Assembly: GCA_041663145.1 (NCBI GenBank) | Contig: JBAZRG010000005.1 | Location: 1-41,310 of the forward strand | Length of the DNA: 41,310 nucleotides | Source: Minisyncoccota bacterium | GTDB taxonomy: Bacteria; Patescibacteriota; Minisyncoccia; Phycocordibacterales; PALSA-1337 | Direction of reading: 5' to 3' | Part shown: positions 6,799 to 32,464 of the stretch, one piece after another | Layout of the letters: every line of letters begins with the position of its first letter | Numbering within the stretch: position 1 is the stretch's first letter | The notes under the pieces: generated by a model | Databases searched by the model: none | The model's input: only the letters and a program-made list of their open reading frames with translations | Told to the model about the DNA's origin: nothing | Made by a program: the position numbers and the translations under genes

Positions 6799-7880
6799 AA
6801 AGGATTGCGCGCGCCTCGAATCTCAAAGTGTACATGGGGACCTGTAGATAGCCCTGTCGATCCCATAGAACCGATAACTTCACCTTGAAGGACTTTTTCA
6901 CCAACAACCACGGAGCTTTTTTGCATATGCCCATAAAGAGTCTGTGTGCCATTTGAATGTGAAATAACGATGTAATTACCATAACCACCATTCCATGCTC
7001 CATTCATACGATTGATGATAATAGTACCGGAAGCAGAAGCTCGAATCGGAGTACCGACCGGACCAGCTATATCTATGCCATTGTGTCCATGTAGACCCTG
7101 AGTCCTGGTACCACCGACGACTGGCCGTATGAAATATCCTGAAATAGTAGGCCAATTTTGACCATCTAGTAAAGGCTGAGTCAGGGAATTTTTTGAAGCT
7201 GACGTAGAACGGATTTGTGGAGCGGCAAGTTCAGCATTAGGAATGATGAGATGTTGACCTACAAATATCTTTGAAGACACCAATAAATCATTGTAAGCAA
7301 GTATCTCATTTGTATCAGCATTGTATTTCTTGGCTATGGATTGGAGATTTTCACCTTTAATCACAGTGTGATCTAGACCTGAAATCGGCAAAATGACCAA
7401 AGTCTGGCCAGTTTTAAGGACTGATTTACTTCCAATATTGTTTGCCCATAGAATCGTATTGACTGATACGTTGAACATCTTAGCGACACTAGAAACAGTA
7501 TCACCTTCACGTACTACATAAGTGCTGATTTTTGTATTATCTATATCCTTATCGACAGAATTTGAAAGCGCCAAGTCTGGTACCAGAGATTCATCATCGA
7601 TAGGTACGATATCGGTCAATCCATCAGGGTTTGGATCGCGATTCGCGGCGGCTGCTAACAAAGTAATATTCTGAGAAGTAATTATCTTGCCGGGACGATT
7701 GATTTTGGCTGAAGCGGACTCACCAGCCACAAGGGAAGACATAAATGAAATAAGACCGGCCTTGGCAATCTTATCACAAGAAAATACTATTGAGACGGCG
7801 AGAACTATAACAACTACAAACAAAGTGATGCGTCTTTTAATCAATCTATTTTCAGTTGTTTTTTTTGAATGTAATTGCAT
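6795..7880 (-). CDS. LysM-repeat M23-family peptidoglycan endopeptidase
   Basis: ORF 6795..7943 (GTG). The ATG at 7880 (MQLHSKKTT..) precedes the TM anchor. There are two LysM repeats (YVVREGDTVSSVAKMF..; HTVIKGENLQSIAKKY..) and M23 motifs (HNGIDIAGPVGTPI, GSTGLSTGPHVHFEI). The start codon is uncertain. Confidence 0.9.
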   Translation of the reverse strand: MQLHSKKTTENRLIKRRITLFVVVIVLAVSIVFSCDKIAKAGLISFMSSLVAGESASAKINRPGKIITSQNITLLAAAANRDPNPDGLTDIVPIDDESLVPDLALSNSVDKDIDNTKISTYVVREGDTVSSVAKMFNVSVNTILWANNIGSKSVLKTGQTLVILPISGLDHTVIKGENLQSIAKKYNADTNEILAYNDLLVSSKIFVGQHLIIPNAELAAPQIRSTSASKNSLTQPLLDGQNWPTISGYFIRPVVGGTRTQGLHGHNGIDIAGPVGTPIRASASGTIIINRMNGAWNGGYGNYIVISHSNGTQTLYGHMQKSSVVVGEKVLQGEVIGSMGSTGLSTGPHVHFEIRGARNPF

Positions 7881-10119: not shown

Positions 10120-10300
10120 GAGGGGGATGATGAGTACGTTTTAAGAATCTGCGAAACTCGTTCATGAAATTTGCATGACAAAATGCTCTGGAATCACACA
10201 ATGTTGCACATTGGTGATTCCCTATACAGTCGCATTTTGTCGGCAATTTCTATTCACTCAGACAGTTCTCGATTCTTAAAACGTACTCATCATCCCCCTC
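10120..10300. repeat. 181-nt extended hairpin element with 30-bp perfect terminal arms (element C)
   Basis: Arms 10120..10149 (GAGGGGGATGATGAGTACGTTTTAAGAATC) and 10271..10300 are exact reverse complements. Inner helices are 10177-10186/10232-10241 (10 bp), 10190-10197/10214-10221 (8 bp) and CAATGT/ACATTG around the apex near 10206. It fills the pcrA-rsmA spacer. Confidence 0.9.
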
Positions 10301-10315: not shown

Positions 10316-11152
10316 ATGCAACTCATACCAAAAAAATCATTAGGTCAACATTTTTTGAATTCAAGACATGTTCTTGAACAGATAATTCAAGCTGCCGATA
10401 TAAAAGTGGGGGAGATAATCCTAGAAATAGGGCCTGGTACAGGCTTTTTGACTGATGCTTTGCTACATGCCAAAGCAAATGTCGTGGCTATTGAAAAAGA
10501 CGATCGAGCGTTCGAATTATTACAAGAAAAATATAGCGATCAAATATCTAATAAAAAACTCAAACTAATCAAAGGAGATATATTGGATCTCAAAATCGCG
10601 GATTTATTAAAATCCAGTGATTTTCCCGCACCTACGACCGAAAATGAATCGAAGATAGCTGATTATTCTATTGTCGCTAATATCCCTTATTATATTACTG
10701 GCGCAATACTTCAAAAATTCCTTGAAGAAGACTACAGACCAAAAAGAATGGTTCTATTGGTCCAAAAAGAAGTGGCTGATCGCATAGTCGCTCATGACAA
10801 TAAAGAAAGCATACTATCTGTATCAGTAAAGGCTTTTGGTTCTCCGAAAATCGCCCAAAGAGTGCCTCGTGGAGCATTTACACCACCACCTTCTGTAGAA
10901 TCAGCAATTCTCTGTATAGAAAACATCAACAATGAACGATTCACTTCAAATAATGTTGAAATATCGACTTTCTTTAAAATTGTGAAGAGTGGTTTTGCTC
11001 ACAAAAGAAAATTCCTAATGAGAAATCTGGAACAGGCTATGGAGGCTTCGAAAATCAAAGATATCTGGCAAAGATTGAATCTCAATGAAAAAATCCGTGC
11101 AGAAGACTTGAAATTAGAGGATTGGTTCCGAATTTCTGTTTTAATTAAGTAA
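10316..11152 (+). CDS. rsmA: 16S rRNA (adenine1518/1519-N6)-dimethyltransferase
   Basis: 278 aa. KSLGQHFL, the SAM motif ILEIGPGTGFLT and VANIPYYITGAIL are diagnostic of KsgA/RsmA. Confidence 0.95.
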   Translation: MQLIPKKSLGQHFLNSRHVLEQIIQAADIKVGEIILEIGPGTGFLTDALLHAKANVVAIEKDDRAFELLQEKYSDQISNKKLKLIKGDILDLKIADLLKSSDFPAPTTENESKIADYSIVANIPYYITGAILQKFLEEDYRPKRMVLLVQKEVADRIVAHDNKESILSVSVKAFGSPKIAQRVPRGAFTPPPSVESAILCIENINNERFTSNNVEISTFFKIVKSGFAHKRKFLMRNLEQAMEASKIKDIWQRLNLNEKIRAEDLKLEDWFRISVLIK

Positions 11153-11250
11153 CCTTCAGGAAATAACTTCCCTCCCGTCTCCTGCGGGCGCTAATCGCTA
11201 GCTACCCGTCCTCGGAGCACGGGAGGGAAGTTATTTCCTGAAGGTTACTT
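11147..11250. repeat. 104-nt hairpin element with 31-bp perfect arms and conserved apical core (element A)
   Basis: Arms 11147..11177 (AAGTAACCTTCAGGAAATAACTTCCCTCCCG) and 11220..11250 are exact reverse complements. The left arm includes the rsmA stop codon. The 42-nt loop carries CCTGCGGGCGCTAATCGCTAG...TCCTCGG, also present in element B. Confidence 0.9.
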
Positions 11251-11281
11251 AGAAAAATTATGTGAAAATAAAAGGTATCTC

Positions 11282-12394: not shown

Positions 12395-13291
12395 ATGGCG
12401 ATTTTCTACCCGCGAAAACAAACGGCTATAATATTTATTGTATGTTTAGTGGTCATAATTGCTGCCATGTATTTCTCTGATACTAGTCTAGTAGCAAAAA
12501 AAGCCAAGCAACTGAACGACAGTTCGCCTGTGATCGCCGTAAAAACTGATGATACAAAGACAATAAAAACTCTTGATGGAAAAGACTGGAAAGAACAATT
12601 CTTTGATGTAACAAAAAACTCATCTGCTTATAAAGCAGAACCTCAGACAGAAGTAACGTCTATCGAAGAACCTGTCACGGTTACGGATCAGTTTGGTCGC
12701 GACTTTTTTGCCCGTTATATGTTACTGAAACAAAACAATCTAACTGAAGATGATGAATCAATAAAAGCCGTAATAGATCAAAGCATGGATGAGATAGCAA
12801 CGCAGGTATCTCAACCGAAACTCTATTTCAGAAAAGATATTCTGGTATCTGAAAATAGCGGACCTGTTGCCATAAAAACCTATGCCAATGCTGTAGGGTC
12901 TCTATTTTATGCAAAAGCTCCTCGCGAGAATGCCGCTCTCATAGCCAGTCAAGCTCTAGATGCCAATGATCCTGCGGAACTAGTCAGTATCCCCCCAATA
13001 ATCAATAGTTACACTGCACTTCTTGCTGATCTCAAACGTTTACCAGTACCAAAAGAGTTGGCTGATCATCATATCGATCTTATAAACGGTATAAGCGCCA
13101 TGCTTTTCGTCTCAGATGGGATGAACAAAGTCTTTACTGATCCGATCCAATCCCTCGTGGCACTCAATCTGTACGGAACAGCCCAAGATGCTTTGCGTGG
13201 ATCACTGCTTCAATTCAAAATATACTTCGCAGACAATAAAATATCTTTTACGCCTGCCGAGTATGGAAGTTTTTTTGCTACAATAAAATAA
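12395..13291 (+). CDS. Hypothetical N-terminally anchored protein (first gene of T4SS-like operon)
   Basis: 298 aa. One N-terminal TM (AIIFIVCLVVIIAAMYF) followed by a mostly helical-looking ectodomain. The next ORF starts 4 nt after its stop. The position would suit a VirB8-type bitopic component, but I see no sequence evidence for that. Confidence 0.7.
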   Translation: MAIFYPRKQTAIIFIVCLVVIIAAMYFSDTSLVAKKAKQLNDSSPVIAVKTDDTKTIKTLDGKDWKEQFFDVTKNSSAYKAEPQTEVTSIEEPVTVTDQFGRDFFARYMLLKQNNLTEDDESIKAVIDQSMDEIATQVSQPKLYFRKDILVSENSGPVAIKTYANAVGSLFYAKAPRENAALIASQALDANDPAELVSIPPIINSYTALLADLKRLPVPKELADHHIDLINGISAMLFVSDGMNKVFTDPIQSLVALNLYGTAQDALRGSLLQFKIYFADNKISFTPAEYGSFFATIK

Positions 13292-13295
13292 ATCC

Positions 13296-14993
13296 ATGCC
13301 TAAACTATTTACACATTTCAAAAAAACTTTCATAGGCTTAGGTATATTCGCTATTATTTTTACGTCTCTCGCTATCGCTCCTTCGAAGGCAGAAGCTCAA
13401 GCTGGTACCGTACCGATAGGCACGCACTTGGACTTCAATAGCATCATGGACCATCTCAAAGAGTTCGTTCTCGATAAAGCGGCAGTCGCAATCGCCAATC
13501 AAGTCCTCCAGAGAATGACCGCGAGCGTCGTCGGCTGGATCAATAGCGGTTTTGAGGGCAGTCCGGCATTCTTACAAAATCCAGAAGGATTCTTTCTCGA
13601 TGTAGCGGACCAAGTGACGGGTGAATTCTTGCTGGGTAGTCCTTTATCTGCGTTGTGTTCACCGATCAGTATCGATATTAGGTTATCTTTGGCTTTGAGT
13701 CAGACTGAAATGTTGCAAAATCGGTATACATGTACTCTAAACAAAATCATCCAAGCACAAAAAAACGGACCTGACATCACAATTAACGGTGAAGTCGTAA
13801 ATTCTTCTGGAGCAACGGACGATTTTACGAATGGTAATTTTTACGCAGGAGGTTGGGATGCATTCATGGCTCTAACGACTGAACCACAAAACAATCCTTC
13901 AGGTGCTTTCTTGATGGCGGAAAGCGATCTTAATGTCGCAATATCAGAAAAAAAGATAGCGATAAAAGCCGACCTACAAATGGGTAACGGATTTATGTCA
14001 TGGGAAAAATGTAAAGACGTCACAGCTCAAGCCAATGCTGGCGCATACGACAAGGAAGATCAACTATTCAAGAGTGGAAATCAAACTGTGAATACGGGCA
14101 AGACCGATCTCAATAAAAATACATCATTAAAATCCAAAGTTGATAAAAATGGCAATGTTACATATCAGGATTGTCAGGTTCAAACACCTGGCTCCGTGAT
14201 CGGCGGCACGTTACAAAGACAGCTAAATGTACCTGCTGATAAACTAGTCCTGGTAAAGACAATCAGTGACAGTATCGATGCCATAATGGGTGCATTGGTA
14301 AATCAGATGCTGACACAAGGTCTAGCATCACTCAGTAAAGGTGGATCATCGGTGAGTGGTGACGGTAGGGCATACCTCACGGAATTACAGGATGAAGCAA
14401 ACCGCAAAGACAACACTACTACACAAAGTCAGATCGCAGATGCATTGACGGTCCAAAACTCCAATCTCGAAAATTACAAATCGATATACGACGAAGCCGT
14501 GGCACTCATAACCTCAGTCCAAACTGCGTTAAATTCGGCTCGAGCATGTTTTGACACAAAATCGAAAAACCTAAGCTTGGGACAAGATAAGGAGATGAAC
14601 TATGCTCAGAACAAAATCGCAGGCATCGATACTATCATCGCCAACCGCATATATCCGATCTTACTCTCTGCACTCACAAAACAAAAAGAGGCGACAGATA
14701 TGCTTGCAGAACAAGAGCAACAGACGAATGATGCGGCATCAGGTATCGCTGGTGATTTCGTCCTCGATTCATCGAATGATCCGACTGTAAATCCATTTGA
14801 TGATTTCCAGGACTCAGTCGCAGACTCAGAAGTCGCACTAAAAGACAATCTTCAAGCCAGCACAATCGCTACCACCGATATAACAAAAGCAAGAAAAGAA
14901 TTGGAGGCAATCAGAAAAGAGACCGATTCACTCATGAAGCAATCTCAGGAATTCCAAGCTTCCTGCACAGCGTTTCCAAACAATATGGATTGA
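13296..14993 (+). CDS. Hypothetical secreted protein, 565 aa
   Basis: Signal-peptide-like N-terminus (FIGLGIFAIIFTSLAIAPSKAEA/QA), several Cys, and a Q/E/K/D-rich helical C-terminal third. Its stop TGA (14991-14993) overlaps the TTG at 14990 of the next ORF. Confidence 0.75.
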   Translation: MPKLFTHFKKTFIGLGIFAIIFTSLAIAPSKAEAQAGTVPIGTHLDFNSIMDHLKEFVLDKAAVAIANQVLQRMTASVVGWINSGFEGSPAFLQNPEGFFLDVADQVTGEFLLGSPLSALCSPISIDIRLSLALSQTEMLQNRYTCTLNKIIQAQKNGPDITINGEVVNSSGATDDFTNGNFYAGGWDAFMALTTEPQNNPSGAFLMAESDLNVAISEKKIAIKADLQMGNGFMSWEKCKDVTAQANAGAYDKEDQLFKSGNQTVNTGKTDLNKNTSLKSKVDKNGNVTYQDCQVQTPGSVIGGTLQRQLNVPADKLVLVKTISDSIDAIMGALVNQMLTQGLASLSKGGSSVSGDGRAYLTELQDEANRKDNTTTQSQIADALTVQNSNLENYKSIYDEAVALITSVQTALNSARACFDTKSKNLSLGQDKEMNYAQNKIAGIDTIIANRIYPILLSALTKQKEATDMLAEQEQQTNDAASGIAGDFVLDSSNDPTVNPFDDFQDSVADSEVALKDNLQASTIATTDITKARKELEAIRKETDSLMKQSQEFQASCTAFPNNMD

Positions 14994-14998
14994 TAAAA

Positions 14999-16906
14999 AT
15001 GAAGAAATATTTACCACAAATTATAATTTTAACCCTGATCGCAACGGTGTGTGCGGTATTTCCAACACACGTTGTTGATGCTGAAACAGGTGGTGCGGTA
15101 AATGCAATTCTCGGAACATTTTTCAATGTAACTTTTGGCACAGCCCTCCAACTCATTGGTTATATTCTATACACTGTCCTTACGATAGTAAGCTTTGGTC
15201 TGACCATGTCAGCCATGGTCCTCAATGCATCCATTTACCTAACGACTCACCTCGGTATATTTATAGACAATACTCCGGCAATATATACGGTTTGGCGTAT
15301 TCTTCGTGATATTTCTGGGATGTTTCTGATCTTCCTGCTTCTCATAGCCGCAATCCAAACGATCCTAGGCATACAAAAAGCAAACTATAAGCAAACTCTG
15401 ATCAGTATAGTTATTGTCGGTATATTGATAAATTTCAGCTTCTTCTTTACTACCGTCCTCATAGATGCTTCCAATGTCGTCTCGCTTCAATTATACAATT
15501 CTATAGCTCCTGATATTTCCGCTGTAGAATGTGATAGTGCGGCCGCAACATCTAAAAACGCCAATTCATATTTCAATTGCATATCTAGTTCAGTAATAGG
15601 TGCCAGAGCTGGCGGACTTGCTACAGTCATTACAAATTCACTAAACATTGTTCAGTGGCGAAGTAGTAAATCAACTCTACTTCAAACAGATGATAGGGTA
15701 CTAGGGTCGACAGATATAGGAGCTCGTATGATATTGGTAAATACGGCTGCTATATTCGTAACCATATTGGCCGCGCTCAGTATGTTAGCGGCTGCGGCTG
15801 CGGCGATATGGCGCATCTGTGTACTTATCATGCTATTGGCATTCTCTCCACTATGGATTGCCGGTTATGTTCTACCTCAAACCAAAGCCGAAGTATCCAA
15901 CAAATGGGTAAAACATCTGAAAGCAAATTTGATATTCCTACCTGTATATCTACTACTCATGTACGTTGTCTTAACTATCATTACCGCTCTAGATCTTGGC
16001 GCGCTCGGAAATATAGGGTCAACGAACGTCTCTGATGTTGCGAATATGACATGGTATGCACCATATCTGCAACTTTTCGTTGGTTTTTCGATCATTATAT
16101 TTATGATCAATCTTCCACTAGTAACTGCATTCAATATAGCCGGATCAACAGGCAACATCATCGAAAAAATCGCCAAGCAAGCTACTGGGACTATCAGTGG
16201 TTGGGCGAAGAAAGGTGCATTGGGTGGTGTCGGTATGGCATGGAACAATACTGGCGGACGGTTGGCTAGTAATGTCGGCAACAGTTCAACGCTCAGAAAT
16301 TTTGCTGCGCGAAGTGTAGTTGGTGGATTGGCCTTAAGAGGAGTCAAAGGAGTAGCCACAAATTATGATCGAAATATCGAAGAACAGGTAAAAACAAGAA
16401 CTAAATTTGCAGAATCACTTGGTCACGATCCACATGAATTGATTCCGTATCAAGCCCGATTAAAATCGTTAAATCTAGATCTGGTTTCAGCCAAATCTCG
16501 AAATGATAAAGTCGAAGTTGATAAGTTAGAGAAAACGATTGGCATAACTAAAGGTAAAATCGCAGAAATTGAAAACCGAAGGGCACGGACTTATGCAAAC
16601 AGACTCGAAACTTCAATCCTTTCTCGCATGAGTGTAAGTAATGGTATCGCCGCTGCAAAGATCCAAATCCCGATTCTTGAAAAAGAGATAACAAGAAAGA
16701 AAGAAGGTTTGAAGGAAATAAGAGACGATATCAAGCAACTAAACAAAGCAATTAGAAGCAATCCAGCTGCTGGAGGCATAGCGGCTGGAACAGCAAATGC
16801 CGCACAGCTAGCCGATCTCACAGATCTTTACAATCAAGAACTCGCTAAAGTTGGCTCTATTAACGCTGATGAATCAACCTTAGAAAATCTAAAATTATCA
16901 ACATGA
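14999..16906 (+). CDS. VirB6/TrbL-like polytopic membrane protein
   Basis: ORF 14990..16906 (TTG); the ATG at 14999 gives MKKYLPQ... About 8 hydrophobic helices lie in the first ~400 aa, including an Ala-rich segment (LAALSMLAAAAAAIWRICVLIMLLAFSPLWIAG). A ~230-aa hydrophilic coiled-coil-like tail follows. Topology and operon position match VirB6/TrbL/PrgH-type channel proteins. The call is by architecture, not by a recognised motif. Confidence 0.65.
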   Translation: MKKYLPQIIILTLIATVCAVFPTHVVDAETGGAVNAILGTFFNVTFGTALQLIGYILYTVLTIVSFGLTMSAMVLNASIYLTTHLGIFIDNTPAIYTVWRILRDISGMFLIFLLLIAAIQTILGIQKANYKQTLISIVIVGILINFSFFFTTVLIDASNVVSLQLYNSIAPDISAVECDSAAATSKNANSYFNCISSSVIGARAGGLATVITNSLNIVQWRSSKSTLLQTDDRVLGSTDIGARMILVNTAAIFVTILAALSMLAAAAAAIWRICVLIMLLAFSPLWIAGYVLPQTKAEVSNKWVKHLKANLIFLPVYLLLMYVVLTIITALDLGALGNIGSTNVSDVANMTWYAPYLQLFVGFSIIIFMINLPLVTAFNIAGSTGNIIEKIAKQATGTISGWAKKGALGGVGMAWNNTGGRLASNVGNSSTLRNFAARSVVGGLALRGVKGVATNYDRNIEEQVKTRTKFAESLGHDPHELIPYQARLKSLNLDLVSAKSRNDKVEVDKLEKTIGITKGKIAEIENRRARTYANRLETSILSRMSVSNGIAAAKIQIPILEKEITRKKEGLKEIRDDIKQLNKAIRSNPAAGGIAAGTANAAQLADLTDLYNQELAKVGSINADESTLENLKLST

Positions 16907-17982
16907 TATCATACGACGAAAATACAATATCAGAAAAGTTTTTGAAGTTGCCAGAGGAGATCCAAGTGGCTTTATCTTCTGTAGAAATCGGACGAACAAT
17001 AAAATCAATCGGTGACAAATACGAACTCAAGCTGGATCAAGAACAAATCTTATACGATCAAATAGGTCTTGTTATGCTTGGTTTATTGCCATCAAAAGAT
17101 TTTGTAAAAACATTTTCGAAAGAAGCCAATATTGAAAATGAAGTCTCACATCAAATAGCTTCGGATGTAAACAAAGAAGTCTTTGATAAATTGAAACTTT
17201 CGATGCGCGAAACAGAAGATGAACAAGAACTTCCTGAAACAAAAGTCCCCTCAATTGCTGACGCGTATAAAGAACGACCAACGATTGCGCCATTACCACC
17301 AACACCACCTGCTCCGGTAGTACCGAGAGTAGAAGTTCAAGAAGAAATGGGACCAGCGCCGAGATTTGAACCAAAACCTGAACCAGCACCGACACCACGA
17401 TTGGAGTCGAGATCTGAACCAGCGCCGACGTCAACACTTAGATCAACACCAGAACCGATTCCAGCTCCACAACCAAGACCTCAGTATACTCCACCAAAAA
17501 ATTTGGATGCTCTAACCTTCCAAAGGGAACCAGTCAAGCCACTATTTGACAGTGCAACTACAGAAAGAGATAGGGAAAAATATCTCTCACATCTTGAAAA
17601 TCCGCCTTGGAAAAAACAGCCTGAGATCAAAATTGAGAAAGAACAAAATGAACCAGAACAAGAACCAATACAACCAATTAACATAAACATCAAAAAAGAA
17701 TCAGACGTTGTAATACCCACTAATATAAACATTAAGAAAGAAACGAACACTGTACCACCAACACACACAGAACCACTTGTAGATCTATTACTCTCAAATT
17801 CGACTGGTCGACCGACTGAGATCACAAGAAACAAAGTCGAAGCGGCCGTACCAGAAAATTTACCAGTAGTTCCAAATGCGGAAAACCAAAGTCCACCAAC
17901 AGGAACTACCAAACCAACATCGCCGACGAACATTCCATCGCGACGAATCGGTCCTGATCCTTACAAAGAGCCGGTAGAGTAG
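16903..17982 (+). CDS. Hypothetical Pro-rich protein
   Basis: 359 aa with an ATGA start/stop overlap to the upstream gene. A ~110-aa helical N-domain is followed by P/E/T-rich repeats (PAPRFEPKPEPAPTPRLESRSEPAPT..; duplicated NINIKKE). No obvious TM or signal peptide. Confidence 0.65.
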   Translation: MISYDENTISEKFLKLPEEIQVALSSVEIGRTIKSIGDKYELKLDQEQILYDQIGLVMLGLLPSKDFVKTFSKEANIENEVSHQIASDVNKEVFDKLKLSMRETEDEQELPETKVPSIADAYKERPTIAPLPPTPPAPVVPRVEVQEEMGPAPRFEPKPEPAPTPRLESRSEPAPTSTLRSTPEPIPAPQPRPQYTPPKNLDALTFQREPVKPLFDSATTERDREKYLSHLENPPWKKQPEIKIEKEQNEPEQEPIQPININIKKESDVVIPTNINIKKETNTVPPTHTEPLVDLLLSNSTGRPTEITRNKVEAAVPENLPVVPNAENQSPPTGTTKPTSPTNIPSRRIGPDPYKEPVE

Positions 17983-18010
17983 GGTATACTATATAGTGAA
18001 ATAAACAAAA

Positions 18011-18445
18011 ATGCGTTTCCAAGTTCCCCAATTCATCGAAGTTGAAGATAAGATATTTGGTCCGCTGACCTTGAAGCAATTCATATATCTGGTCGGTGGA
18101 GGAGGTTTATCGTTTCTTATTTATACGATACTAGACAGTTTGATACTCTCTATCATTCCTATAGCCATCGTTATGGCCATATCGGCGACTTTTACCTTTT
18201 ATAGAGTCAACAATAAACCTTTTGTGGTTGTAGCCGAAAATGCATTCAAATATTTCTTTGGAAATAAGCTCTATATTTGGAAAAAACAGGACAATATAAA
18301 GCCAAAAGAGGATGAATCTGTAGATAAAGAAGTAAAAAATTATGCTTCCATCATGGTGCCGAAAATATCAGACAGTAAGCTAAAAGATCTGACGTGGAGT
18401 CTGGATATCAAAGAAAGCGTCTATTCAAACAAAAATCAAAGGTAA
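18011..18445 (+). CDS. PrgI-family (VirB3-like) small membrane protein
   Basis: 144 aa. The N-terminus MRFQVPQFIEVEDKIFGPLTLKQFIYLVGGGGLSFLIY plus a second TM matches the PrgI-family pattern of Gram-positive-type T4SS. It lies just upstream of the VirB4-like genes. Confidence 0.7.
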   Translation: MRFQVPQFIEVEDKIFGPLTLKQFIYLVGGGGLSFLIYTILDSLILSIIPIAIVMAISATFTFYRVNNKPFVVVAENAFKYFFGNKLYIWKKQDNIKPKEDESVDKEVKNYASIMVPKISDSKLKDLTWSLDIKESVYSNKNQR

Positions 18446-18447
18446 AT

Positions 18448-19095
18448 ATGGCAAAATCAAAACCACAAAAAACTACTCAGGATTTTGTTCCCATTCAGGA
18501 GATTCGTGATGGAGTAATAATCCTCAAAAATGGCGGTATGCGCTCGATAATATTGGCATCATCGCTCAATTTTGCCTTGAAATCACAAGATGAACAGAGC
18601 TCGATCCTTATGCAATTTCAAAATTTTGTCAATTCTCTCGATTTTTCGATTCAGATTTTCATTCAATCGAAAAAACTCGATATCAGACCATATATAGCGC
18701 TCCTTGAGAACCGCTACAAGGATCAGCTCACTGAATTGATGAAAATACAGGTCAGGGAATACATAGACTTCATCAAAACATTCGTCGAAAATACAAATAT
18801 AATGTCAAAAAGCTTCTTCGTCGTCATTCCTTATGATCCAGCAATGATGAGTGCCAGCAAAAATCCACTCACAAACTTTCTACCACGAAAAGGCGATGCA
18901 GAGAGTCCAGCTGAAACAGCTGATGTTCGATTCCAAGAATATCGTAGTCAATTAGAGCAGAGGGTAGCCGTTGTCGAACAAGGACTGGTGCGTTGTGGTA
19001 TCAGGGTAGCTGAGCTCGGCACCGAAGAAGTCGTCGAGCTATATTACAAACTCTTCAATCCCGGCGAAACCGAGAAACCGATCCAAATAACATGA
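18448..19095 (+). CDS. Stand-alone VirB4 N-terminal-domain-like protein (no ATPase motifs)
   Basis: ORF 18394..19095. The ATG at 18448 follows the upstream TAA by 2 nt. TQDFVPIQEIRDGVIILKNGGMRSIILASSLNFALKSQDEQSSILMQFQNFVNSL resembles the N-terminal region of Gram-positive VirB4/TcpF/PrgJ-type proteins. No Walker motifs. ATGA overlap with the downstream VirB4-like gene. Confidence 0.6.
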   Translation: MAKSKPQKTTQDFVPIQEIRDGVIILKNGGMRSIILASSLNFALKSQDEQSSILMQFQNFVNSLDFSIQIFIQSKKLDIRPYIALLENRYKDQLTELMKIQVREYIDFIKTFVENTNIMSKSFFVVIPYDPAMMSASKNPLTNFLPRKGDAESPAETADVRFQEYRSQLEQRVAVVEQGLVRCGIRVAELGTEEVVELYYKLFNPGETEKPIQIT

Positions 19096-20915
19096 GTATA
19101 TTTTCAAAACTATTCCATAAAAAAGAGGAATCACCGATCGTTTCCATATTACCTGAAGAGATCTATCAGGCCGGCGTTTTGGAACTGAAAGACATCATCG
19201 CTCCTTCTGCTCTAAAGATCAACCCAAAAGAACTAAATCTAGGTGAAAAAGTTGGCAGAACACTATTCGTCATTTCATACCCACGATTTCTCGATGAAAG
19301 TTGGTTCGCTCCGATCATCAATCTAGACAAAGTATTCAACGTTTCTATATTCATCCATCCGGTAGACACCGCCAAGATTCTCCGACATTTCCAAAAGAAA
19401 GTTGCCGAAGTCCAAAGCCAGATATCTAGAAGGGAAGACAAGGGTTTGGTACGCGATCCAGCTCTGGATACAGCGTACCAAGATCTTGAAGCACTTCGCG
19501 ATCAACTCATGCAAGCTCAGGAACATCTTTTTGATGTTGGAGTTTACATCACTATATTCGCAGACAATGACAATGAGCTAGACAAACTAGAATCTGAAAT
19601 CAAATCGATCCTTGAATCAAAACTTGTTTATGTAAAACCAGCATTATTCCAACAAGAACAAGGCTTCAAAAGTGTTATTCCAATAGGAGATGATCAGCTC
19701 GCTGTACATTCCAAACTCAATTCTTCACCTCTTTCTAGTTTATTTCCATTTGTCTCATTCGATCTAACGTCAGACAAAGGCATCCTCTACGGTATCAATA
19801 GACACAATTCTTCTTTGGTATTGTTTGATAGATATTCTCTGGAAAACTACAATTCTGTAACATTTGCCGTAGCTGGAGCCGGAAAATCGTATTGCACAAA
19901 ACTTGAGATACTTCGCACACTCATGTTCGATACAGATGTTATCGTCATCGATCCGGAAAAAGAATATGAATACATGTCAGAAGCGACTGGTGGTAAATAT
20001 TTTAATATTTCTCTAAATTCCGAACATCATATCAATCCATTCGATTTGCCTATACCAACCGAAGATGAATCGGCCTCGGATGTTTTGCGTTCAAATATCA
20101 TCAATCTGGTAGGACTGTTCCGAATCATGCTTGGCGGTCTCACACAGGAAGAAGACGCCATCATCGATAGGGCAATATCAGAGACATATGCACTCAAAGA
20201 CATAACTCCAGAATCAGATTTTCGAACTGTCGAACCACCATTGTTATCAGATTTTGAACTAGTCTTGGCTGGCATGGAGGGTGGAGAATCGCTAGTACAG
20301 AGACTGACTAAATACACAAAAGGTACTTGGGCCGGTTTCATAAATCGTCCATCCAATGTCGACATAAATAAAAAATTCGTCGTATTTTCTCTGCGCGATA
20401 TGGAAGATGAACTCAAACCGGTAGCCATGTACATCGTAACTCACTATATCTGGAATGCCATTCGCAAAGTAAAAAAGAAAAGATTATTGGTGATCGACGA
20501 GGCCTGGTGGATGATGAAATCAGAAGATACGGCTTCATTCCTATTCGGTCTTGCCAAAAGAGGTCGCAAATATTTCCTAGGATTGGCGACGATCACGCAG
20601 GACGTAGATGACTTTCTAAAATCACCATACGGAATGCCGATTTTGACAAACTCATCCATCCAAGTACTTTTGAAACAGTCTCCGACGGTCATAGACCACA
20701 TCCAGCAGACATTTAACCTGACAAACGAAGAAAAGTACCTGTTACTCGAGTCTGATGTCGGTGAAGGCATGTTTTTCGTCGGTCTCAAACACGTAGCCAT
20801 CAAAATAGTGGCTTCTTACACCGAAGATCAGATAATTACCACAAATCCCGCTCAAGTCTTACAAATAGAAAAAGCCAAAAAAGATCTCGAGGCAGCCGAA
20901 CAGCTGAATAAATAA
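19092..20915 (+). CDS. VirB4/TrbE-like type IV secretion ATPase
   Basis: 607 aa. Walker A FAVAGAGKSYCTK, Walker B RLLVIDEAWWMM, GLATITQDVDDF, and an N-domain (GRTLFVISYPRFLDESWFAPII..VSIFIHP) typical of VirB4-family proteins. Confidence 0.9.
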   Translation: MSIFSKLFHKKEESPIVSILPEEIYQAGVLELKDIIAPSALKINPKELNLGEKVGRTLFVISYPRFLDESWFAPIINLDKVFNVSIFIHPVDTAKILRHFQKKVAEVQSQISRREDKGLVRDPALDTAYQDLEALRDQLMQAQEHLFDVGVYITIFADNDNELDKLESEIKSILESKLVYVKPALFQQEQGFKSVIPIGDDQLAVHSKLNSSPLSSLFPFVSFDLTSDKGILYGINRHNSSLVLFDRYSLENYNSVTFAVAGAGKSYCTKLEILRTLMFDTDVIVIDPEKEYEYMSEATGGKYFNISLNSEHHINPFDLPIPTEDESASDVLRSNIINLVGLFRIMLGGLTQEEDAIIDRAISETYALKDITPESDFRTVEPPLLSDFELVLAGMEGGESLVQRLTKYTKGTWAGFINRPSNVDINKKFVVFSLRDMEDELKPVAMYIVTHYIWNAIRKVKKKRLLVIDEAWWMMKSEDTASFLFGLAKRGRKYFLGLATITQDVDDFLKSPYGMPILTNSSIQVLLKQSPTVIDHIQQTFNLTNEEKYLLLESDVGEGMFFVGLKHVAIKIVASYTEDQIITTNPAQVLQIEKAKKDLEAAEQLNK

Positions 20916-20959
20916 TAAAAAAGACGCATAGATAAGTCACCAATGCTATAATCATCTAT

Positions 20960-21451
20960 ATGGCATCAATTGGGAATAAAGCAAAAGGTGGTGGCTGGTT
21001 GATCCTGTATATCATCACCGGCGTCGTCGATATTTTCCAGATCTTTGCAACCGCTACCGGAGTCGGAATCGTTGCAAGTGAAGCTCTAGAAGCTATCATG
21101 CCTTTTGTTTTGGCTGGCACACTCCAATTTTTGCTCAAAGTTTCACTGATTTCGCACCCATCTCGACTCTTATCTATTATCGGAGCAACAGGTTTTGATG
21201 CTTTAACTGGCGGTGTGGCTCCTTTTTGGATATTAGATGTCTGGTATGTACAAAGAACTGTCAAAAGTGAGGATACTGAAGTTTTGTCAGAGATGAATAA
21301 AGAGGCATTTATGAAACAAAACATCGCACAACCACTTTATAGCAATGGACGTCGTAATGTCACAACTTCCAATATCGAAAATACTGAAAATCAATCCAGA
21401 CCGGTTGTCATGGATGGAGTTCGGGCCCCTGGTGGGGGATTAAATAGATAA
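20960..21451 (+). CDS. Hypothetical small integral membrane protein
   Basis: 163 aa. Three hydrophobic segments in the first ~95 aa, then a polar tail. No family recognised. Confidence 0.6.
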   Translation: MASIGNKAKGGGWLILYIITGVVDIFQIFATATGVGIVASEALEAIMPFVLAGTLQFLLKVSLISHPSRLLSIIGATGFDALTGGVAPFWILDVWYVQRTVKSEDTEVLSEMNKEAFMKQNIAQPLYSNGRRNVTTSNIENTENQSRPVVMDGVRAPGGGLNR

Positions 21452-21501
21452 ATGGTGATAACTATATATTTGAATTCGTAATTCATGGTAAAATAATACC
21501 G

Positions 21502-22545
21502 ATGATTTCTCACTTCAAATTGACATTTGTATTGATCGGCATACTAATCGTTCCAATTTTGCTTACAAATACGGTAAATGCTCAAGGTATTCCATTTTCA
21601 GCCGGAGTGGAGCTTACAACTTCGACCGATAGTCCTGTACCCGGACAAGATCTCACCATAACAGCCAATAGTTATAGTGCGAATATAAACTCAGCCAAAA
21701 TAACTTGGACTGTAGACGGTAAGGTTGTGAGCAGAGAAGTTGGTAAAACCACACTAAACATAAAAGCTCCTGCCATAGGAAAGCGTATGATAGTCAAATT
21801 TAGTGCGGTAACGACTGATAATATAGCTCTATCGACTTCTATCACCATCACTTCCGGATCTATTGATCTAATAATCGAATCCGATGGGTATGTACACCCA
21901 TTCTTCAAGGGAAAAATACCGACAGTTTACCAAAATACCGTAAAAGTAATTGCCGTACCACACATCGCCAATTCTGCAGGCGTTGAATATGATCCGAAAT
22001 CTCTTGTGTATCAATGGAAAAAGAATGGACGAGCCATCGAAGACCAGTCTGGCTACGGAAAACAGTCTGTCACTTTGGAAGGGGATATCGTACCTCGCCC
22101 ATACGATCTCTCTGTTACAGCGACCCTCCGTGATGGGACTGCTCAAGCAATGGGTATCATCAGTATTTCAGCATCTTCTCCTAGTCTTAATTTCTACGTT
22201 AATGATCCTCTATACGGATCGATGTTCAACTCTGCCATAAAAAATCAGCTACGTATTGGCTCACAAAAAGAAATGGGTGTGATCGCTGTGCCATATGGAT
22301 TCAATGTCCAACAAAATAATTACAACAATCTCTCCCTAACTTGGTCTATTAACAATTCCACACGTTCCGAGCTGGCTGGAAATAAATCTATAATTCTCCG
22401 ATCTCCGAGTGGTCAGGCTGGTTCATCGAATATTAAGCTGGATATTAAAAATAACAAAAACATTTTACAAGGTGCAAATGGCGGTTTTTCAGCCGTATAT
22501 ACAGCCAACAATGACGATACAACAAACACAACTGTTACATTTTAA
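21502..22545 (+). CDS. Hypothetical secreted protein with three tandem beta-rich repeats
   Basis: 347 aa with a signal-like N-terminus (LIGILIVPILLTNTVNA/QG). Three ~100-aa units share the pattern V/I-x-A-x-P/N ... (I/L/V)-x-(W/Y)-x-(V/W/I) ... G ... x-(L/I)-x: ITANSYS..ITWTVDGK; VIAVPHI..LVYQWKKNGR; VIAVPYG..LSLTWSINNS. This suggests Ig-like or beta-sandwich domains. Confidence 0.7.
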   Translation: MISHFKLTFVLIGILIVPILLTNTVNAQGIPFSAGVELTTSTDSPVPGQDLTITANSYSANINSAKITWTVDGKVVSREVGKTTLNIKAPAIGKRMIVKFSAVTTDNIALSTSITITSGSIDLIIESDGYVHPFFKGKIPTVYQNTVKVIAVPHIANSAGVEYDPKSLVYQWKKNGRAIEDQSGYGKQSVTLEGDIVPRPYDLSVTATLRDGTAQAMGIISISASSPSLNFYVNDPLYGSMFNSAIKNQLRIGSQKEMGVIAVPYGFNVQQNNYNNLSLTWSINNSTRSELAGNKSIILRSPSGQAGSSNIKLDIKNNKNILQGANGGFSAVYTANNDDTTNTTVTF

Positions 22546-22554
22546 TACATAAAC

Positions 22555-23727
22555 ATGAATTCCAAATCAATCAATAAAACAATAAGCTTTCTACTCATAA
22601 TATTCGTATTTGGAGTACTTCCAACTTTTTCTGCAAAAGCCGAAGATACTTATACGCTTCTGGCACCTTTGCCTTGCATAGCGACTCCAGATACGACAGG
22701 CGTGGATGCACAGGGTAATGAGATAACTGTCCCTGGACAAAAATGCACAACAAGTGACCCAATCAAAAATATGAATCTGAAAGATTATCTGCAATATGCC
22801 GTAAATCTATTTATCGCTCTAGCATCTGTAGCGGCGGTATTTATGATCGTTCGAGGAGGTTTCCTGTACATGACCAGTACCATCCCTGGAATGAAAAATG
22901 ATGGATTGGCAATGGTTAAAAACGCTATTATCGGTCTTCTAATGGTCTTGTGTTCATATATCATCTTGCGCACAATCGATCCGAGATTGGTAAACTTGCC
23001 GTCAACGATCGTGCCACCGCTTGAGCTCTCCAGTAAATTGACAGACAAAACTGATGATTTCTTTGATTCGCTGATATCTGATGCACAAAAATACGATGCA
23101 TATGCCAAACAATTTGTAGAGGATGCTAGAGCAGCAAAAGTCGCATCCGCTGGACTGGAAGCACAAAAAGTAGATCTCCAGGAACAACTAAAGACTGCAA
23201 TGCAAAACAGCGATGAGACTGCGATAACAAACATTCAAAACCAAATATCTAATATTGACAATGAGATAGCCGAGAAAAAAAATTTGATTGATATAGACCT
23301 AGCAAAGTCAATAATGGATGGTGGGGTTTCCGCAACTTCACAAAAGATAAATATATTAGCCATGGATCAAAAACTCACTCTCGACGAAGTTGATAAAATT
23401 GTGGCTTCCAGTCTTGATTTTATCTCCGAGACTGCAAGAGAAAGAAATGCTAGTCTAGCAAGTCGTGGCGCCTATGATCAGATTCAAAAAATTGATGCTA
23501 AGGTGGTTGAAAGTGAAGTAGCTGTCCAATTAATAGGCGTTGAAGCTAAAGCAAGTGCATCTTGGACAGCTTGGTTTGGTTTGATTGGTAATTTAGACAA
23601 AGCAAAACTTAATTCAGAATTAGATAAAATTGCACCTCAAATAGGTGATATTCGTGATCCAGTTGTAAAAAAAGCTATGCAGGACAAATTCACTGCAATC
23701 AAAACAAAAATTTCAAAACTAAAATAA
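22555..23727 (+). CDS. T4SS-pilin-like (TrbC/VirB2-type) protein with long coiled-coil C-terminal extension
   Basis: 390 aa. Signal-like N-terminus (FLLIIFVFGVLPTFSAKA), then two hydrophobic helices joined by a short polar loop (YAVNLFIALASVAAVFMIVRGGFLYMTS..KNAIIGLLMVLCSYIILRTI), as in T4SS pilins. The remaining ~240 aa are a heptad-like Q/E/K/A/D-rich sequence. Confidence 0.65.
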   Translation: MNSKSINKTISFLLIIFVFGVLPTFSAKAEDTYTLLAPLPCIATPDTTGVDAQGNEITVPGQKCTTSDPIKNMNLKDYLQYAVNLFIALASVAAVFMIVRGGFLYMTSTIPGMKNDGLAMVKNAIIGLLMVLCSYIILRTIDPRLVNLPSTIVPPLELSSKLTDKTDDFFDSLISDAQKYDAYAKQFVEDARAAKVASAGLEAQKVDLQEQLKTAMQNSDETAITNIQNQISNIDNEIAEKKNLIDIDLAKSIMDGGVSATSQKINILAMDQKLTLDEVDKIVASSLDFISETARERNASLASRGAYDQIQKIDAKVVESEVAVQLIGVEAKASASWTAWFGLIGNLDKAKLNSELDKIAPQIGDIRDPVVKKAMQDKFTAIKTKISKLK

Positions 23728-23728
23728 G

Positions 23729-25006
23729 ATGAAAAACCGCTCAAACATCATCAGTATCGCTCTACTACTCATCGTCATTATGGCAGGTCTGGCATATTGG
23801 TACTTCGTATTCAACAAATCCGACAATGCAGATCCAGTCACAATCGATACTGGTGACGATACAGCCAACGGTTTTATGCCATTGAACGGTGATCCGAGCA
23901 TAACACCGGATTTTGGTACCGGTAATGATGACATCCGGGCAACGCCTGAGACAAATTCAGCCACACCAACATCAGCCACTATCCCGACACTCAGACTGCT
24001 CAGTAACACACCAGTGGGAGGATATGGCGCTTTAACAACAGCAACAACTACGATCATTCGTTGGGTAGATCGTGGAAGAGGTAATATTTTTGAAGTTAAT
24101 ACCTTGAAAAATGATGTTGTAACTTTATCAAATACAGTTCTGCCACGAGTATATGACAGTATTTGGAATACCAACCTTACTGCTTTCATTGGTACACTCA
24201 TATCGAGCGATTCATCAAAAACAACAACACTGTATGCTGAACTACAAAAACAAACCATACCAACATCAACAACTCCATTTTCGCTTAAAGGCAAAAACAT
24301 ATCCGACTCGCTGATCGGCTATGCAGTTTCTCCGAACGGCAATCAAATATTTCTAATGATCAATGAGAATGAGAAGGGCATAGGCTACACAGCCAATTTT
24401 GACGGCAGTCGTATGACTCGCATATTCGATACGCCGATGACCGAAGTCAACGTTGAATGGCCTGAAACAAACACAATAGCAATAACCACAAAGGGTATAT
24501 CTAGCCAGCCGGGTTTCCTTTATTTCGTAAATCCAAAAACCGGTGTATGGAAAAAAATTCTCGGTCCAGTATATGGTCTTTCTACTCGAACAAGCCATGA
24601 TGCAAAATATGTCATAGTTTCTGCTTCCGGCTCAAACAATGACGTCCTAACTGGTATTTACAATGTTACAAAATCGGCAAATACAGATGCAGTTGTTCGA
24701 ACATTGGCAGACAAATGTTCATGGGGAAACTTTTATAAAAAACTTGTTTACTGTGCAGTCCCATCAAAACCAACAAGTGGTGTATATCCCGATGCTTGGT
24801 ATAGAGGAACTCTCTCACTAGTGGACAAAATATGGCAAATCGACGCAGAAACCAACGAAGTTAACCTGATATCTTCGATAGTTGACGAATCCGACAGAGT
24901 CATCGACGCTTTCAATCTCGGTACAGACAATAAAGATCAATTCTTATTCTTTGTGAATAAGAACGACCTATCACTCTGGTCTCTAGACTTGGTCGCAAGC
25001 CAATAA
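23729..25006 (+). CDS. Hypothetical N-terminally anchored protein with beta-propeller-like (PD40/TolB-like) ectodomain
   Basis: 425 aa. TM IISIALLLIVIMAGLAYWYFVF, a disordered linker, then repeated strand-like blocks including YAVSPNGNQIFLM and SHDAKYVIVSAS, which resemble PD40-type blades. It starts 1 nt after the upstream stop. Confidence 0.65.
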   Translation: MKNRSNIISIALLLIVIMAGLAYWYFVFNKSDNADPVTIDTGDDTANGFMPLNGDPSITPDFGTGNDDIRATPETNSATPTSATIPTLRLLSNTPVGGYGALTTATTTIIRWVDRGRGNIFEVNTLKNDVVTLSNTVLPRVYDSIWNTNLTAFIGTLISSDSSKTTTLYAELQKQTIPTSTTPFSLKGKNISDSLIGYAVSPNGNQIFLMINENEKGIGYTANFDGSRMTRIFDTPMTEVNVEWPETNTIAITTKGISSQPGFLYFVNPKTGVWKKILGPVYGLSTRTSHDAKYVIVSASGSNNDVLTGIYNVTKSANTDAVVRTLADKCSWGNFYKKLVYCAVPSKPTSGVYPDAWYRGTLSLVDKIWQIDAETNEVNLISSIVDESDRVIDAFNLGTDNKDQFLFFVNKNDLSLWSLDLVASQ

Positions 25007-25015
25007 TCTGTTTAC

Positions 25016-25167
25016 GAGCTTGGTGAACATTGTTCCGAAACGATTCGCAATGTGATTTGAACCCCGAACAAATTGCCCATATTTGAGTAGTTCCATCTAC
25101 TCAAATATGGTTGCAATTTGGAGTGGGTGACCTTGCGAATCGTTTCGGAACAATGTTCACCAAGCTC
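25016..25167. repeat. 152-nt extended hairpin element with 35-bp perfect terminal arms (element D)
   Basis: Arms 25016..25050 (GAGCTTGGTGAACATTGTTCCGAAACGATTCGCAA) and 25133..25167 are exact reverse complements. The inner 14-bp helix CCATATTTGAGTAG/CTACTCAAATATGG surrounds loop TTCCAT, and CAAATTGC/GCAATTTG also pair. It fills the convergent spacer between the last T4SS-like gene and yidC. Confidence 0.9.
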
Positions 25168-25169
25168 AT

Positions 25170-25946
25170 TTAGACATTATTGCCTATATGCTTCACTGAT
25201 TGGAGATATTTTTTCCTAATATATAGCTCTTGGAGTAGGGTAGCGAAAGCACTAACTGACCAATATATAGCTATTATCGATGCCGCTTGGGGAAACTGGG
25301 CCGGAATCAACCAATATGTTGAGGCAAACGCTACTACCGGCAACATAAACTTCATCTGCTTATTCATCGAATGAGACAATTGTGAAGCCTTGTCGAGAGT
25401 TCCGCCATTGCGAAGAGTTTCTTCGGCCATGGATTTTTGTTGGCGCATTGCCACGGAGAAGTGCATCTGTAGATATTGGGCTAGAGCCGTGATCAGAGAC
25501 AAAATAATGCTCTTTTGTGTAAGATCTAGACCAAGCAATGTTGGTAGAACTACCGGTGGAGAAATAAAACTGTATAGAAGCGTAGGATCGATCGTTGGAA
25601 TGATCTTATAAAAAACCGAAATCAAGGCCAGCAATATCGGTAACTGGATGATGAGAAGTAAAATTCCTGAAAACGGCTTGATCTTCTTTTGTTTATACAA
25701 TTCCATGATCTTCAATGCCTGCTGTTGTTTGTCAGTAGAATATTGCGCTCTGATCTTGGCAGCTTCCGGCTCAACTTCTTTCATACGAACTTGGGTCAAT
25801 AGGGAGCTCTTGGAGAGGGGAAACAGTATGATACGGATGATAATGGTAAAGATAATAACAGCTACACCAACATCAATACCTGGCAATAGATCCATAATAC
25901 CGACGAGACCATTATAAAGAGGTAAAAATATAAATTTTGTATACAT
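25170..25946 (-). CDS. yidC: Membrane protein insertase YidC (short form)
   Basis: 258 aa. GVAVIIFTIIIRIILFPLS, MKEVEPEAAKIRAQY and MELYKQKKIKPFSGILLLIIQLPILLAL are typical of YidC/Oxa1. It is downstream of rnpA, as in the conserved rpmH-rnpA-yidC order. Confidence 0.9.
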   Translation of the reverse strand: MYTKFIFLPLYNGLVGIMDLLPGIDVGVAVIIFTIIIRIILFPLSKSSLLTQVRMKEVEPEAAKIRAQYSTDKQQQALKIMELYKQKKIKPFSGILLLIIQLPILLALISVFYKIIPTIDPTLLYSFISPPVVLPTLLGLDLTQKSIILSLITALAQYLQMHFSVAMRQQKSMAEETLRNGGTLDKASQLSHSMNKQMKFMLPVVAFASTYWLIPAQFPQAASIIAIYWSVSAFATLLQELYIRKKYLQSVKHIGNNV

Positions 25947-32364: not shown

Positions 32365-32464
32365 ACGCTATGTTTTAATTTTTGTAAAATCTCTACTTGC
32401 ATACGTTGTAACAAAGATGATTATCTTTTGCAAGAAATGTCGACTGTGGATAATTGGGAATTAA

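Follow-up and report, generated by a model that had tools for sequence, protein, structure and literature searches.

The stretch of DNA considered here, hereafter the window, comprises 41,310 nt of contig JBAZRG010000005.1 from the Minisyncoccota assembly GCA_041663145.1. Because yidC, rnpA, dnaA, and dnaN all lie within it and its cumulative GC skew reaches a minimum at ~24-27 kb, the window is the replication origin (oriC) region of a chromosome from the Patescibacteria, or candidate phyla radiation (CPR). Its other genes are housekeeping genes and those of a type IV secretion system (T4SS), and the best homologues of its RsmA are just 62-64% identical, the named ones belonging to Patescibacteria, Pacebacteria, or Parcubacteria. 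Two long hairpins stand among these genes. Hairpin A lies between the convergent genes rsmA and an open reading frame (ORF) with a peptidoglycan-binding domain, and hairpin B lies between ruvC (32576-33118) and an ORF of 87 aa followed by PBP1, all on the minus strand. We find that both belong to a family of ~100-base palindromic repeats in CPR bacteria that has apparently not been described before.

Both hairpins have fully complementary arms (Table 1), which in B enclose 29 nt. The original prediction, made from the letters of the window, described A as arms of 31 bp without a mismatch around a 42-nt apex, which is the same object counted two pairs shorter than our 33 bp and 40 nt. It was also right that A swallows the rsmA stop codon, as the TAA at 11150-11152 that ends the ORF 10316-11152 (Pfam RrnaAD) falls within the left arm. 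The core said to be shared by the two hairpins, the 13-mer CCTGCGGGCGCTA, occurs exactly twice in the window, once in each and both times on the plus strand, against a chance expectation of 0.12; none of 100 shuffled sequences reached two matches. Either strand of A and B is predicted to fold at about -78 kcal/mol, with z of about -13.5 to -13.9 relative to shuffles, and, as had been noted, no T or U tract follows A or B on either strand.

Table 1. Coordinates of hairpins A and B, the neighboring DnaA-box-like site, and T4SS-related genes in the window
Feature	Position	Strand	Remarks
Hairpin A, left arm	11146-11178	+	33 nt; holds the rsmA stop
Hairpin A, center	11179-11218	+	40 nt between the arms
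Hairpin A, right arm	11219-11251	+	33 nt; perfect complement of the left arm
Hairpin B, left arm	32465-32497	+	33 nt; P2 = GTACGCC
Hairpin B, apex	32496-32528	+	degenerate core CCTGCGGGCGCT-ATCGCTGGTCA-CAATCCTCGG
Hairpin B, right arm	32527-32559	+	33 nt; perfect complement; ends 16 nt short of the ruvC stop
TTATCCACA	32445-32453	-	the one perfect match to the DnaA-box consensus in the window; base of B 11 nt away, TTAT end toward B
PrgI-like gene	18011-18445		within the T4SS-like cluster
VirB4/TraG-type ATPase gene	19092-20915		within the T4SS-like cluster
T4SS pilin-like ORF	22555-23727		within the T4SS-like cluster

Exact-pattern scanning of reference genomes (GTDB) returned mostly chance matches in high-GC genomes, together with 7 loci where unrelated complementary arms flanked the core, all in CPR metagenome-assembled genomes (MAGs) of low GC. 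A stricter pattern gave 23 metagenome loci, and one aimed at the core's 3' half gave 9 further genome loci, found in MAGs that their submitters labeled Saccharibacteria, Paceibacterota, or Taylorbacteria and in unclassified CPR bins. The core motif thereby recurs at ~40 loci in CPR genomes and metagenomes (labeled L039 and so on below); the original prediction had staked itself on the core occurring elsewhere and on further copies having complementary arms, and both were found. A covariance model (CM) built from 27 copies scores A at 115.9 bits (E = 2.6e-27) and B at 77.5 bits (E = 1.9e-17), recovers A and B alone in an unfiltered search of the window, and adds two variant copies outside it. 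The alignment from the CM search holds 35 full copies, beyond which stand a remnant (L095), a copy with an apex insertion (L094), a degenerate copy (L096), and two copies at contig ends (L040 and L044). Because copies were found by exact apex patterns, the invariance of the apex described below is partly built in; still, each of the two scans fixed a different half of it, and the matches that the CM alone found show few changes.

The window gave no match to Rfam 15 at the gathering threshold, and a permissive Rfam scan around A (E up to 10) returned generic microRNA-precursor hairpins only, at no more than 48 bits against thresholds of 66-150. Our literature search found no report linking palindromic elements or intrinsic terminators with Patescibacteria. 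The notion that the arms act as spacer-like guides against phages was set aside, as arm A had no viral match and arm B gave 18-nt matches, at chance level, in two unrelated phage coding regions. Among the variant copies, L094 (20-160, minus strand) has perfect 29-bp arms and 23 nt inserted in the apex, and L095 (2990-3060, minus strand) retains the 3' half of the core only, accompanied by a local fold-back (GTCCTCGG...CCGAGGAC); both have the look of template-switching products.

One could suppose that the palindromes reflect coincidence or an artefact of assembly, such as a chimeric or adapter-derived palindrome. Assembly is indeed disturbed at L040 (1-80) and L044 (1-63), two contigs of one MAG that stop inside a family hairpin, and we therefore conclude that these palindromes break short-read CPR assemblies. 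However, the same core with complementary arms appears across independent studies and assemblers in intact syntenic contexts, and shuffles never reproduce the motif pair or the fold. Recurrence across datasets thus effectively refutes the artefact reading, to which we assign a negligible likelihood.

Family hairpins are 83-113 nt long, mostly ~100, and their conservation declines from tip to base. Outermost is a distal stem of ~16-20 bp that is specific to the copy, followed by a proximal stem of ~8 bp that is specific to a subfamily (..AACTTCCC or ..ACATGTCCC), an internal loop of 3x3 pyrimidines (TCC opposite TCC or TAC), a helix P2 (GTCTCC / GGAG-C-AC, with a bulged C), and a 35-nt apex with the consensus CCTGCGGGCGCT(A/G/C)ATCGCT(G/A)GCTACC(C/T)(G/A)TCCTCGG. 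In hairpin A, CTCC (11179-11182) pairs with GGAG (11214-11217) in P2, C 11218 is bulged, and the conserved apex CCTGCGGGCGCTAATCGCTAGCTACCCGTCCTCGG (11181-11215) is identical at 35 of 35 positions to that of L056. The mini-hairpin with a G.U pair that had been proposed for the core is predicted here as well, and the G.U is present in 34 of the 35 family members. P2 itself varies with compensation (GTCGCC/GGCGCAC, GCAACC/GGTTGC, AATCC/GGATT, ATGTCC/GGACCAT), and its variants are genome-specific: GTCGCC/GGCGCAC is found in all five KTt_bin-0975 copies, whose arms are mutually unrelated, and GTCTCC/GGAGCAC in all three GL140_4 copies, indicating bursts or concerted evolution. Where two copies occupy the same site (five pairs), the apex is identical at 34-35 of 35 positions in four pairs and the distal arms are 25-50% identical; the exception on the apex is B in the window, which has decayed to 28/35 identity with its same-site copy in L101. 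The earlier claim that the arms of A and B are unrelated needs qualification in that each belongs to an arm subfamily seen again in other genomes, ..AACTTCCC in its proximal part for A and ..CCCC-N-GCAACATGTCCC for B.

That the arms diverge and nevertheless stay complementary was the central claim of the original prediction, and the alignment bears it out, with compensatory changes in 23 of 23 arm pairs and 94.6% of cells paired across the 35 copies. Double-sided changes number 358 vs ~5 single-sided ones of the G.U type, and G.U is nearly absent from the arms; aligned copy by copy, the distal arms contain 618 Watson-Crick pairs, 3 G.T, 10 A.C, 9 other mismatches, and 14 bulges. In structured RNAs, G.U pairs normally arise as intermediates and are retained, and the arm pattern therefore looks like that of an inverted repeat maintained at the level of DNA. 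The internal loop has moreover been closed in both window copies. In A the former 5' side of the loop, TCC 11172-11174, stands opposite GGA 11223-11225, and in B the loop is closed as TCT/AGA; it is kept open in the relatives L056, L039, L082, L072, and L101, with L067 alone likewise closed. That three positions became exactly complementary twice, independently, argues that one arm was rewritten with the other as its template. The suggestion that some mechanism regenerates the duplex is plausible as an inference from the Watson-Crick-only compensation and from the loop turned into perfect pairs. Quasipalindrome correction by intramolecular template switching, reportedly described by Ripley and by the Lovett laboratory, would explain these same two features. 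It differs in being a mutational process rather than an element family, and it leaves the conserved apex and the dispersal unexplained.

Alternatively, the hairpin may be an RNA element of the host that ends or insulates transcripts, whether as a terminator that needs no U tract, a site for RNase III, or a block to 3' exonucleases, with an apex that binds an RNA factor. Almost every intergenic copy is found 0-30 nt downstream of a stop codon, in the part of the spacer nearer the upstream gene, and -10-like TATAAT boxes follow many copies along the direction of transcription. All five sizeable 3' intergenic spacers of the window carry long hairpins, and hairpins with a T tract are not enriched there as terminators (13 vs 15.8 and 15 vs 14.9 in shuffles). 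The strong predicted RNA fold also suits this reading, as do the conserved G.U pair of the apex and its wobble-compatible A/G changes. It is opposed by the avoidance of G.U in the arms, by the lack of a U tract after A and B, both of which are missing from the terminator scan, and by Rfam matches that were generic and far under threshold.

Orientation also speaks against an RNA role, because in roughly half of the copies the core runs antisense to the transcript that crosses it, and it flips between loci at the same site. Relative to the flanking genes, core orientation was (-,-) in 11 cases, (+,+) in 8, convergent in 6, and divergent in 4, and it was opposite in three of five locus pairs with shared flanking genes, namely B in the window vs L101 (with homologous arms), L054 vs L081, and L098 vs L100. 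Orientation relative to oriC is inconsistent too, as the L039 and L082 copies, on the same side of oriC as B, read on the other strand. With regard to invertons, segments that can invert between inverted repeats, contigs found in duplicate in different samples agree in orientation, and no invertase gene was seen.

Copies inside genes bear on the same question. L070 and its identical counterpart L073, which comes from another sample, each have a 105-nt hairpin in frame within tsaD that splits the Pfam TsaD match into two stretches. Residues 31-190 of this protein align with 2-145 of Escherichia coli TsaD and residues 226-396 with 150-312, so that ~35 residues are inserted exactly at the hairpin, between the equivalents of E. 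coli residues 145 and 150. In L098 and L100 the hairpin encodes the last 30-40 codons of orthologous GT1 glycosyltransferase genes, whose proteins are 65% identical until the hairpin starts; the two copies have identical P2 5' strands, and their arms both begin with TGCG. A degenerate copy lies in an SMC-like ORF (L096). A terminator or RNase III site that worked efficiently would do harm in the middle of the tsaD reading frame, where a full copy lies, and in the 3' ends of genes, where others lie, and it would not be tolerated there. We thus regard a host RNA element as unlikely, and the scarcity of arm G.U pairs, the random orientation, the same-site flips, and the tsaD copy tell against the RNase III, insulator, or terminator role that had been proposed, at least as a general one.

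The same four observations count against the small RNA (sRNA) precursor that had also been put forward as a general role. On this explanation each hairpin would be an independently transcribed gene, driven by a promoter of its own, for an sRNA of ~100 nt or a precursor. Structured RNAs typically show a constant core closed by a stem that varies, stand-alone RNA genes are typically oriented without regard to their neighbors, and the TGTGGATAAT found upstream of B has a superficial likeness to an extended -10 element. As a promoter, however, that motif was rejected: it does not conserve the last T of a -10 hexamer, its TG is wrongly spaced, and it fits a DnaA box, of which TGTG and ATAA are conserved. 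Many copies also abut coding sequence on their 5' side, leaving no room for a promoter, and the Watson-Crick-only stems, the intragenic copies, and the lack of a matching Rfam family add to making stand-alone sRNA genes highly improbable.

The family is also variable in its occupancy. Four relatives (L039, L082, L072, and L101) are syntenic with the window, and their proteins are 65-85% identical. The ruvC site is filled in the window and L101 and empty in L039, and the rpmH-dnaA spacer is filled in L072 and empty in the window and L082. The convergent junction of PBP1 and a conserved 86-aa ORF is filled in L039 and L082 and empty in the window, where PBP1 (minus strand) and the 86-aa ORF (plus strand) overlap tail to tail by 8 nt at 29542-29549; in L101 this junction holds a different, imperfect hairpin of 95 nt (7185-7280). 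Filled and empty sites are too diverged to show whether the arms originated as an inverted copy of the local flank. A supposed orthology of A with L059, after rsmA, was not supported by BLAST of the flanking ORFs. Whole hairpins also duplicate together with their arms: L062 and L101, different loci of one MAG, are identical at 14/16 and 22/23 arm positions (36/39 in all), and the arms of L081, L084, and L074 are alike in the same manner.

Palindromes without the core occur in the window and its relatives as well. One of 181 nt (10120-10300) is near-complete, with a perfect outer 30 bp and an imperfectly palindromic interior, and fills the space from the uvrD/pcrA stop (10110) to the rsmA start (10316). 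Another, imperfect and 188 nt long (hairpin D, 24998-25185), fills the convergent junction of the ORF 23729-25006 and yidC, has both stop codons within its arms, is missing at the orthologous L082 junction, and has a TTATTCACA box nearby at 24952-24960 on the minus strand. Its outer arm TTTACGAGCTTGGTGAACA is identical at 18 of 19 positions to an arm of the core-bearing copy L066, which hints that arms and interiors are modular; a GTDB scan for this common arm gave chance matches only. A third core-less imperfect inverted repeat lies at 34680-34843. L072 has two hairpins in tandem at its ORF425/yidC junction (2451-2641), with 23-bp arms and GC-rich loops of 18 nt (CCGCTGGCCAACAGCGCT and AGCACTGTCGCCCAGTGG), the first of which has CGCTGGC-A-C in common with the family core, and these loops may be related apex types.

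A further regularity concerns DnaA-box-like sites. The box beside B (Table 1) is kept at the orthologous position in L101 and in L039, which is hairpin-free there, and lies 11 nt upstream of a conserved promoter-like site (TTGCAA-17-TACAAC) for the 87-aa ORF and PBP1 genes. Across the family, a 9-mer matching TTATNCACA with at most one mismatch occurs within 30 nt of the hairpin base in 13 of 36 copies, and L094 is a fourteenth by eye. The TTAT end of these boxes always points toward the hairpin, with none in the opposite orientation and ~0.7 expected by chance, and the box starts at a constant 46-51 nt upstream of the core. The L072 copy lies 2 nt from the first box of a conserved three-box cluster upstream of dnaA. 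That the box forms part of a mobile unit was rejected at two loci where it is present at empty orthologous sites and is thus older than the hairpin, these being L039 (a box and a TTGCAA-17-TACAAA promoter) and the three-box cluster of the window as compared with L072. That it is simply a general promoter feature was rejected as well, since sense-oriented boxes are ~2-fold enriched upstream of genes in general vs 13-14 of 36 beside hairpins. The association points to either a preference in insertion or retention or a functional coupling.

Within the window itself, DnaA-box-like sites form two clusters of three, one upstream of dnaA (26517-26552) and one in the dnaA-dnaN interval (27960-28128), which together with the GC-skew minimum mark a probable, possibly bipartite, oriC. 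Almost every base of the upstream cluster and of the dnaA promoter is shared with L072.

A further rival is a host DNA element that would act jointly with a neighboring DnaA box and in which a replication or nucleoid protein binds the extruded hairpin or its apex, for helicase or primosome loading, DnaA titration, or as a roadblock or insulator. The number, direction, and spacing of the boxes fit such an element, as do the position of the L072 copy and the finding that copies of the window and its relatives lie within ~15 kb of oriC; in addition, function independent of orientation suits a cruciform, and the apex is under sequence constraint at shared sites. On the other hand, ~60% of copies lack a box, at two loci the box is older than the hairpin, the general enrichment of sense boxes upstream of genes applies here too, copies occur within genes, and occupancy varies among relatives. 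The clustering near oriC is biased, given that relatives were recognized by homology to this oriC window, and a GC-rich center of 35-40 nt disfavors cruciform extrusion. This is the most interesting rival, and the long-term sequence constraint on the apex and the strength of the association with boxes leave it some probability, though we consider it doubtful.

The family as observed is constrained at the level of DNA, sits in either orientation, is gained and lost, duplicates with its arms, and resides in frame within genes, and we lean toward the reading that A and B are two copies of a nonautonomous mobile DNA palindrome of ~100 bp that is specific to CPR bacteria. The unit would be the whole hairpin, in which Watson-Crick arms of ~28-35 bp and free sequence bear a conserved asymmetric module for recognition, made up of the 3x3 pyrimidine loop, P2 with its bulged C, and the 35-nt GC-rich apex. 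The arms might serve only to extrude the apex when the DNA is single-stranded during replication or repair, or is cruciform, and a hairpin-specific enzyme acting in trans, perhaps an HUH/Y1-type nuclease or a tyrosine recombinase, would read the apex and move or copy the element. One arm would repeatedly serve as template for rewriting the other, through intrastrand template switching or through repair templated by the hairpin, as happens in quasipalindrome mutagenesis, and such self-templated correction could keep the arms perfect as their sequence drifts freely. Copies would persist where they do little harm, namely right after stops, in surface loops, and in protein tails. Retention after stops would then reflect tolerance, with ~40% of copies possibly preferring the TTAT side of DnaA-box-like sites, and any terminator or 3'-stabilizer effect of the transcribed hairpin would be a by-product.

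Several observations weigh against a mobile palindrome. An all-against-all comparison of the ORFs flanking the copies gave no recurrent protein and hence no dedicated neighboring gene, and among these ORFs and those of the window there is no transposase, HUH, or recombinase gene. No target-site duplication, insertion consensus, or base preference was found at the hairpin base or flanks, nor any conserved tetranucleotide at the base. We found no copies in viral contigs, phages, or plasmids and thus no obvious vehicle between lineages, and copy number looks low, with at least five copies in an 839-kb genome. The near-invariance of the apex at shared sites over deep divergence is what a host function would also give, with the reservation made above that exact apex patterns contribute to it. 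Finally, a host role in ending transcription units is possible because long hairpins occupy every sizeable 3' spacer of the window and canonical terminators are not enriched.

A related account, to which we give a smaller though appreciable chance, combines mobility with the DnaA boxes. Here the family would be a new class of palindrome borne by single-stranded or cruciform DNA, with an enzyme that reads the asymmetric apex module only and arms that are self-copied whenever the element moves or is repaired, which would leave their sequence free and their match perfect, and it would home to the TTAT side of DnaA boxes, including those of oriC, and flip in place; or it may have been domesticated as a boundary or replication element coupled to DnaA.

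Rickettsia palindromic elements (RPEs), reportedly described by Ogata et al. in 2000, are among the closest known systems. Like the CPR family, they are dispersed palindromes of ~100-150 bp in reduced genomes, lie both between genes and in frame within them, encode no transposase, and have no known mechanism. The 105-nt in-frame copy in tsaD and the C-terminal GT1 codons are of just this kind. RPEs differ in having a consensus along the whole element, whereas the CPR family conserves the apex module only and has copy-specific arms with no whole-length consensus, and their host group is not CPR; this likeness is judged from descriptions of RPEs rather than from their sequences. RPE-4 and RPE-6 are mentioned in PMC3733652.

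Among the candidates named at the outset, the DNA-level logic of repetitive extragenic palindromes (REPs) and their associated tyrosine transposases (RAYTs) fits best. REP, BIME, and REPIN elements are extragenic palindromes between codirectional or convergent genes, downstream of coding regions (PMC3733652, PMC3337134), as in the CPR family, and for them recognition of a folded single strand is presumed and long vertical persistence goes with family-wide homogeneity. REPs measure 20-40 bp and have conserved stems, variable loops, an unpaired GTAG/CGTC tag, and hundreds of copies (PMC3733652, PMC3337134). The CPR family departs from this description in its size of 83-113 nt, its free arms, its conserved apex, and its low copy number. 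CGTC does occur in most copies (CCGTCTCC) but lies inside the paired P2 beside the apex, and it is replaced in the P2 variants GCAACC, AATCC, and ATGTCC. The RAYT gene that goes with REPs, usually with repeats on both sides of it, was not seen among the ORFs flanking the copies or in the window.

Integron attC sites resemble the family in lying at the 3' ends of genes, in having arms that vary and remain complementary in a site that acts as a folded single strand, and in using extrahelical bases and internal loops as recognition features. Their outer R''/R' boxes (RYYYAAC/GTTRRRY) are conserved and their apex is variable, which is the opposite of the CPR family, and their orientation is fixed relative to the cassette, whereas ours is free; the CPR copies also have no intI gene or cassette array, and synteny is unbroken across the sites. 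MITEs (miniature transposable elements with inverted repeats) and Correia/NEMIS elements are likewise short, nonautonomous, and hairpin-forming, sit in either orientation near genes, and vary in presence among relatives, but MITEs have conserved terminal inverted repeats and a target-site duplication, and the CPR family has unconserved termini and showed no duplication. The best reading is thus that the family works like RPEs and REP/REPIN elements with inverted conservation, the tip being invariant and the arms free.

Several other features of the window deserve mention. A T4SS-like cluster adjoins oriC (12395-25006; Table 1), a placement like that reported for CPR bacteria, in which T4SS genes lie near dnaA (bioRxiv 10.1101/2025.01.22.634366); a paper on the T4SS of CPR bacteria describes relaxases as rare and does not mention oriT. 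On the minus strand, a YafQ/RelB type II toxin-antitoxin pair (40447-41009) overlaps the end of holA tail to tail. The noncoding stretch 34660-34870, from the T2SSE stop to the ruvB start, is conserved with L039 (tblastx), has a promoter-like site TTGACA-17-TAGTAT at 34632-34660 on the plus strand and an internal GGCGCATCATGCGCC hairpin, and gave no Rfam match even at E<=1; it may be an unannotated noncoding RNA.

CPR genomes are tiny and streamlined and are thought to be poor in repetitive or selfish DNA, and their noncoding repertoire is almost uncharted. A repeat family that is absent from Rfam, sits in an essential gene, disturbs assembly, and is nonrandomly coupled to DnaA boxes is unusual in this setting. 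In practical terms, it can serve as a marker in annotating CPR MAGs and in locating their contig breaks. It also offers a handle on a hairpin-specific CPR enzyme, on the maintenance of perfect palindromes, perhaps by template switching, and on DnaA-bound sites as attractors of insertion.

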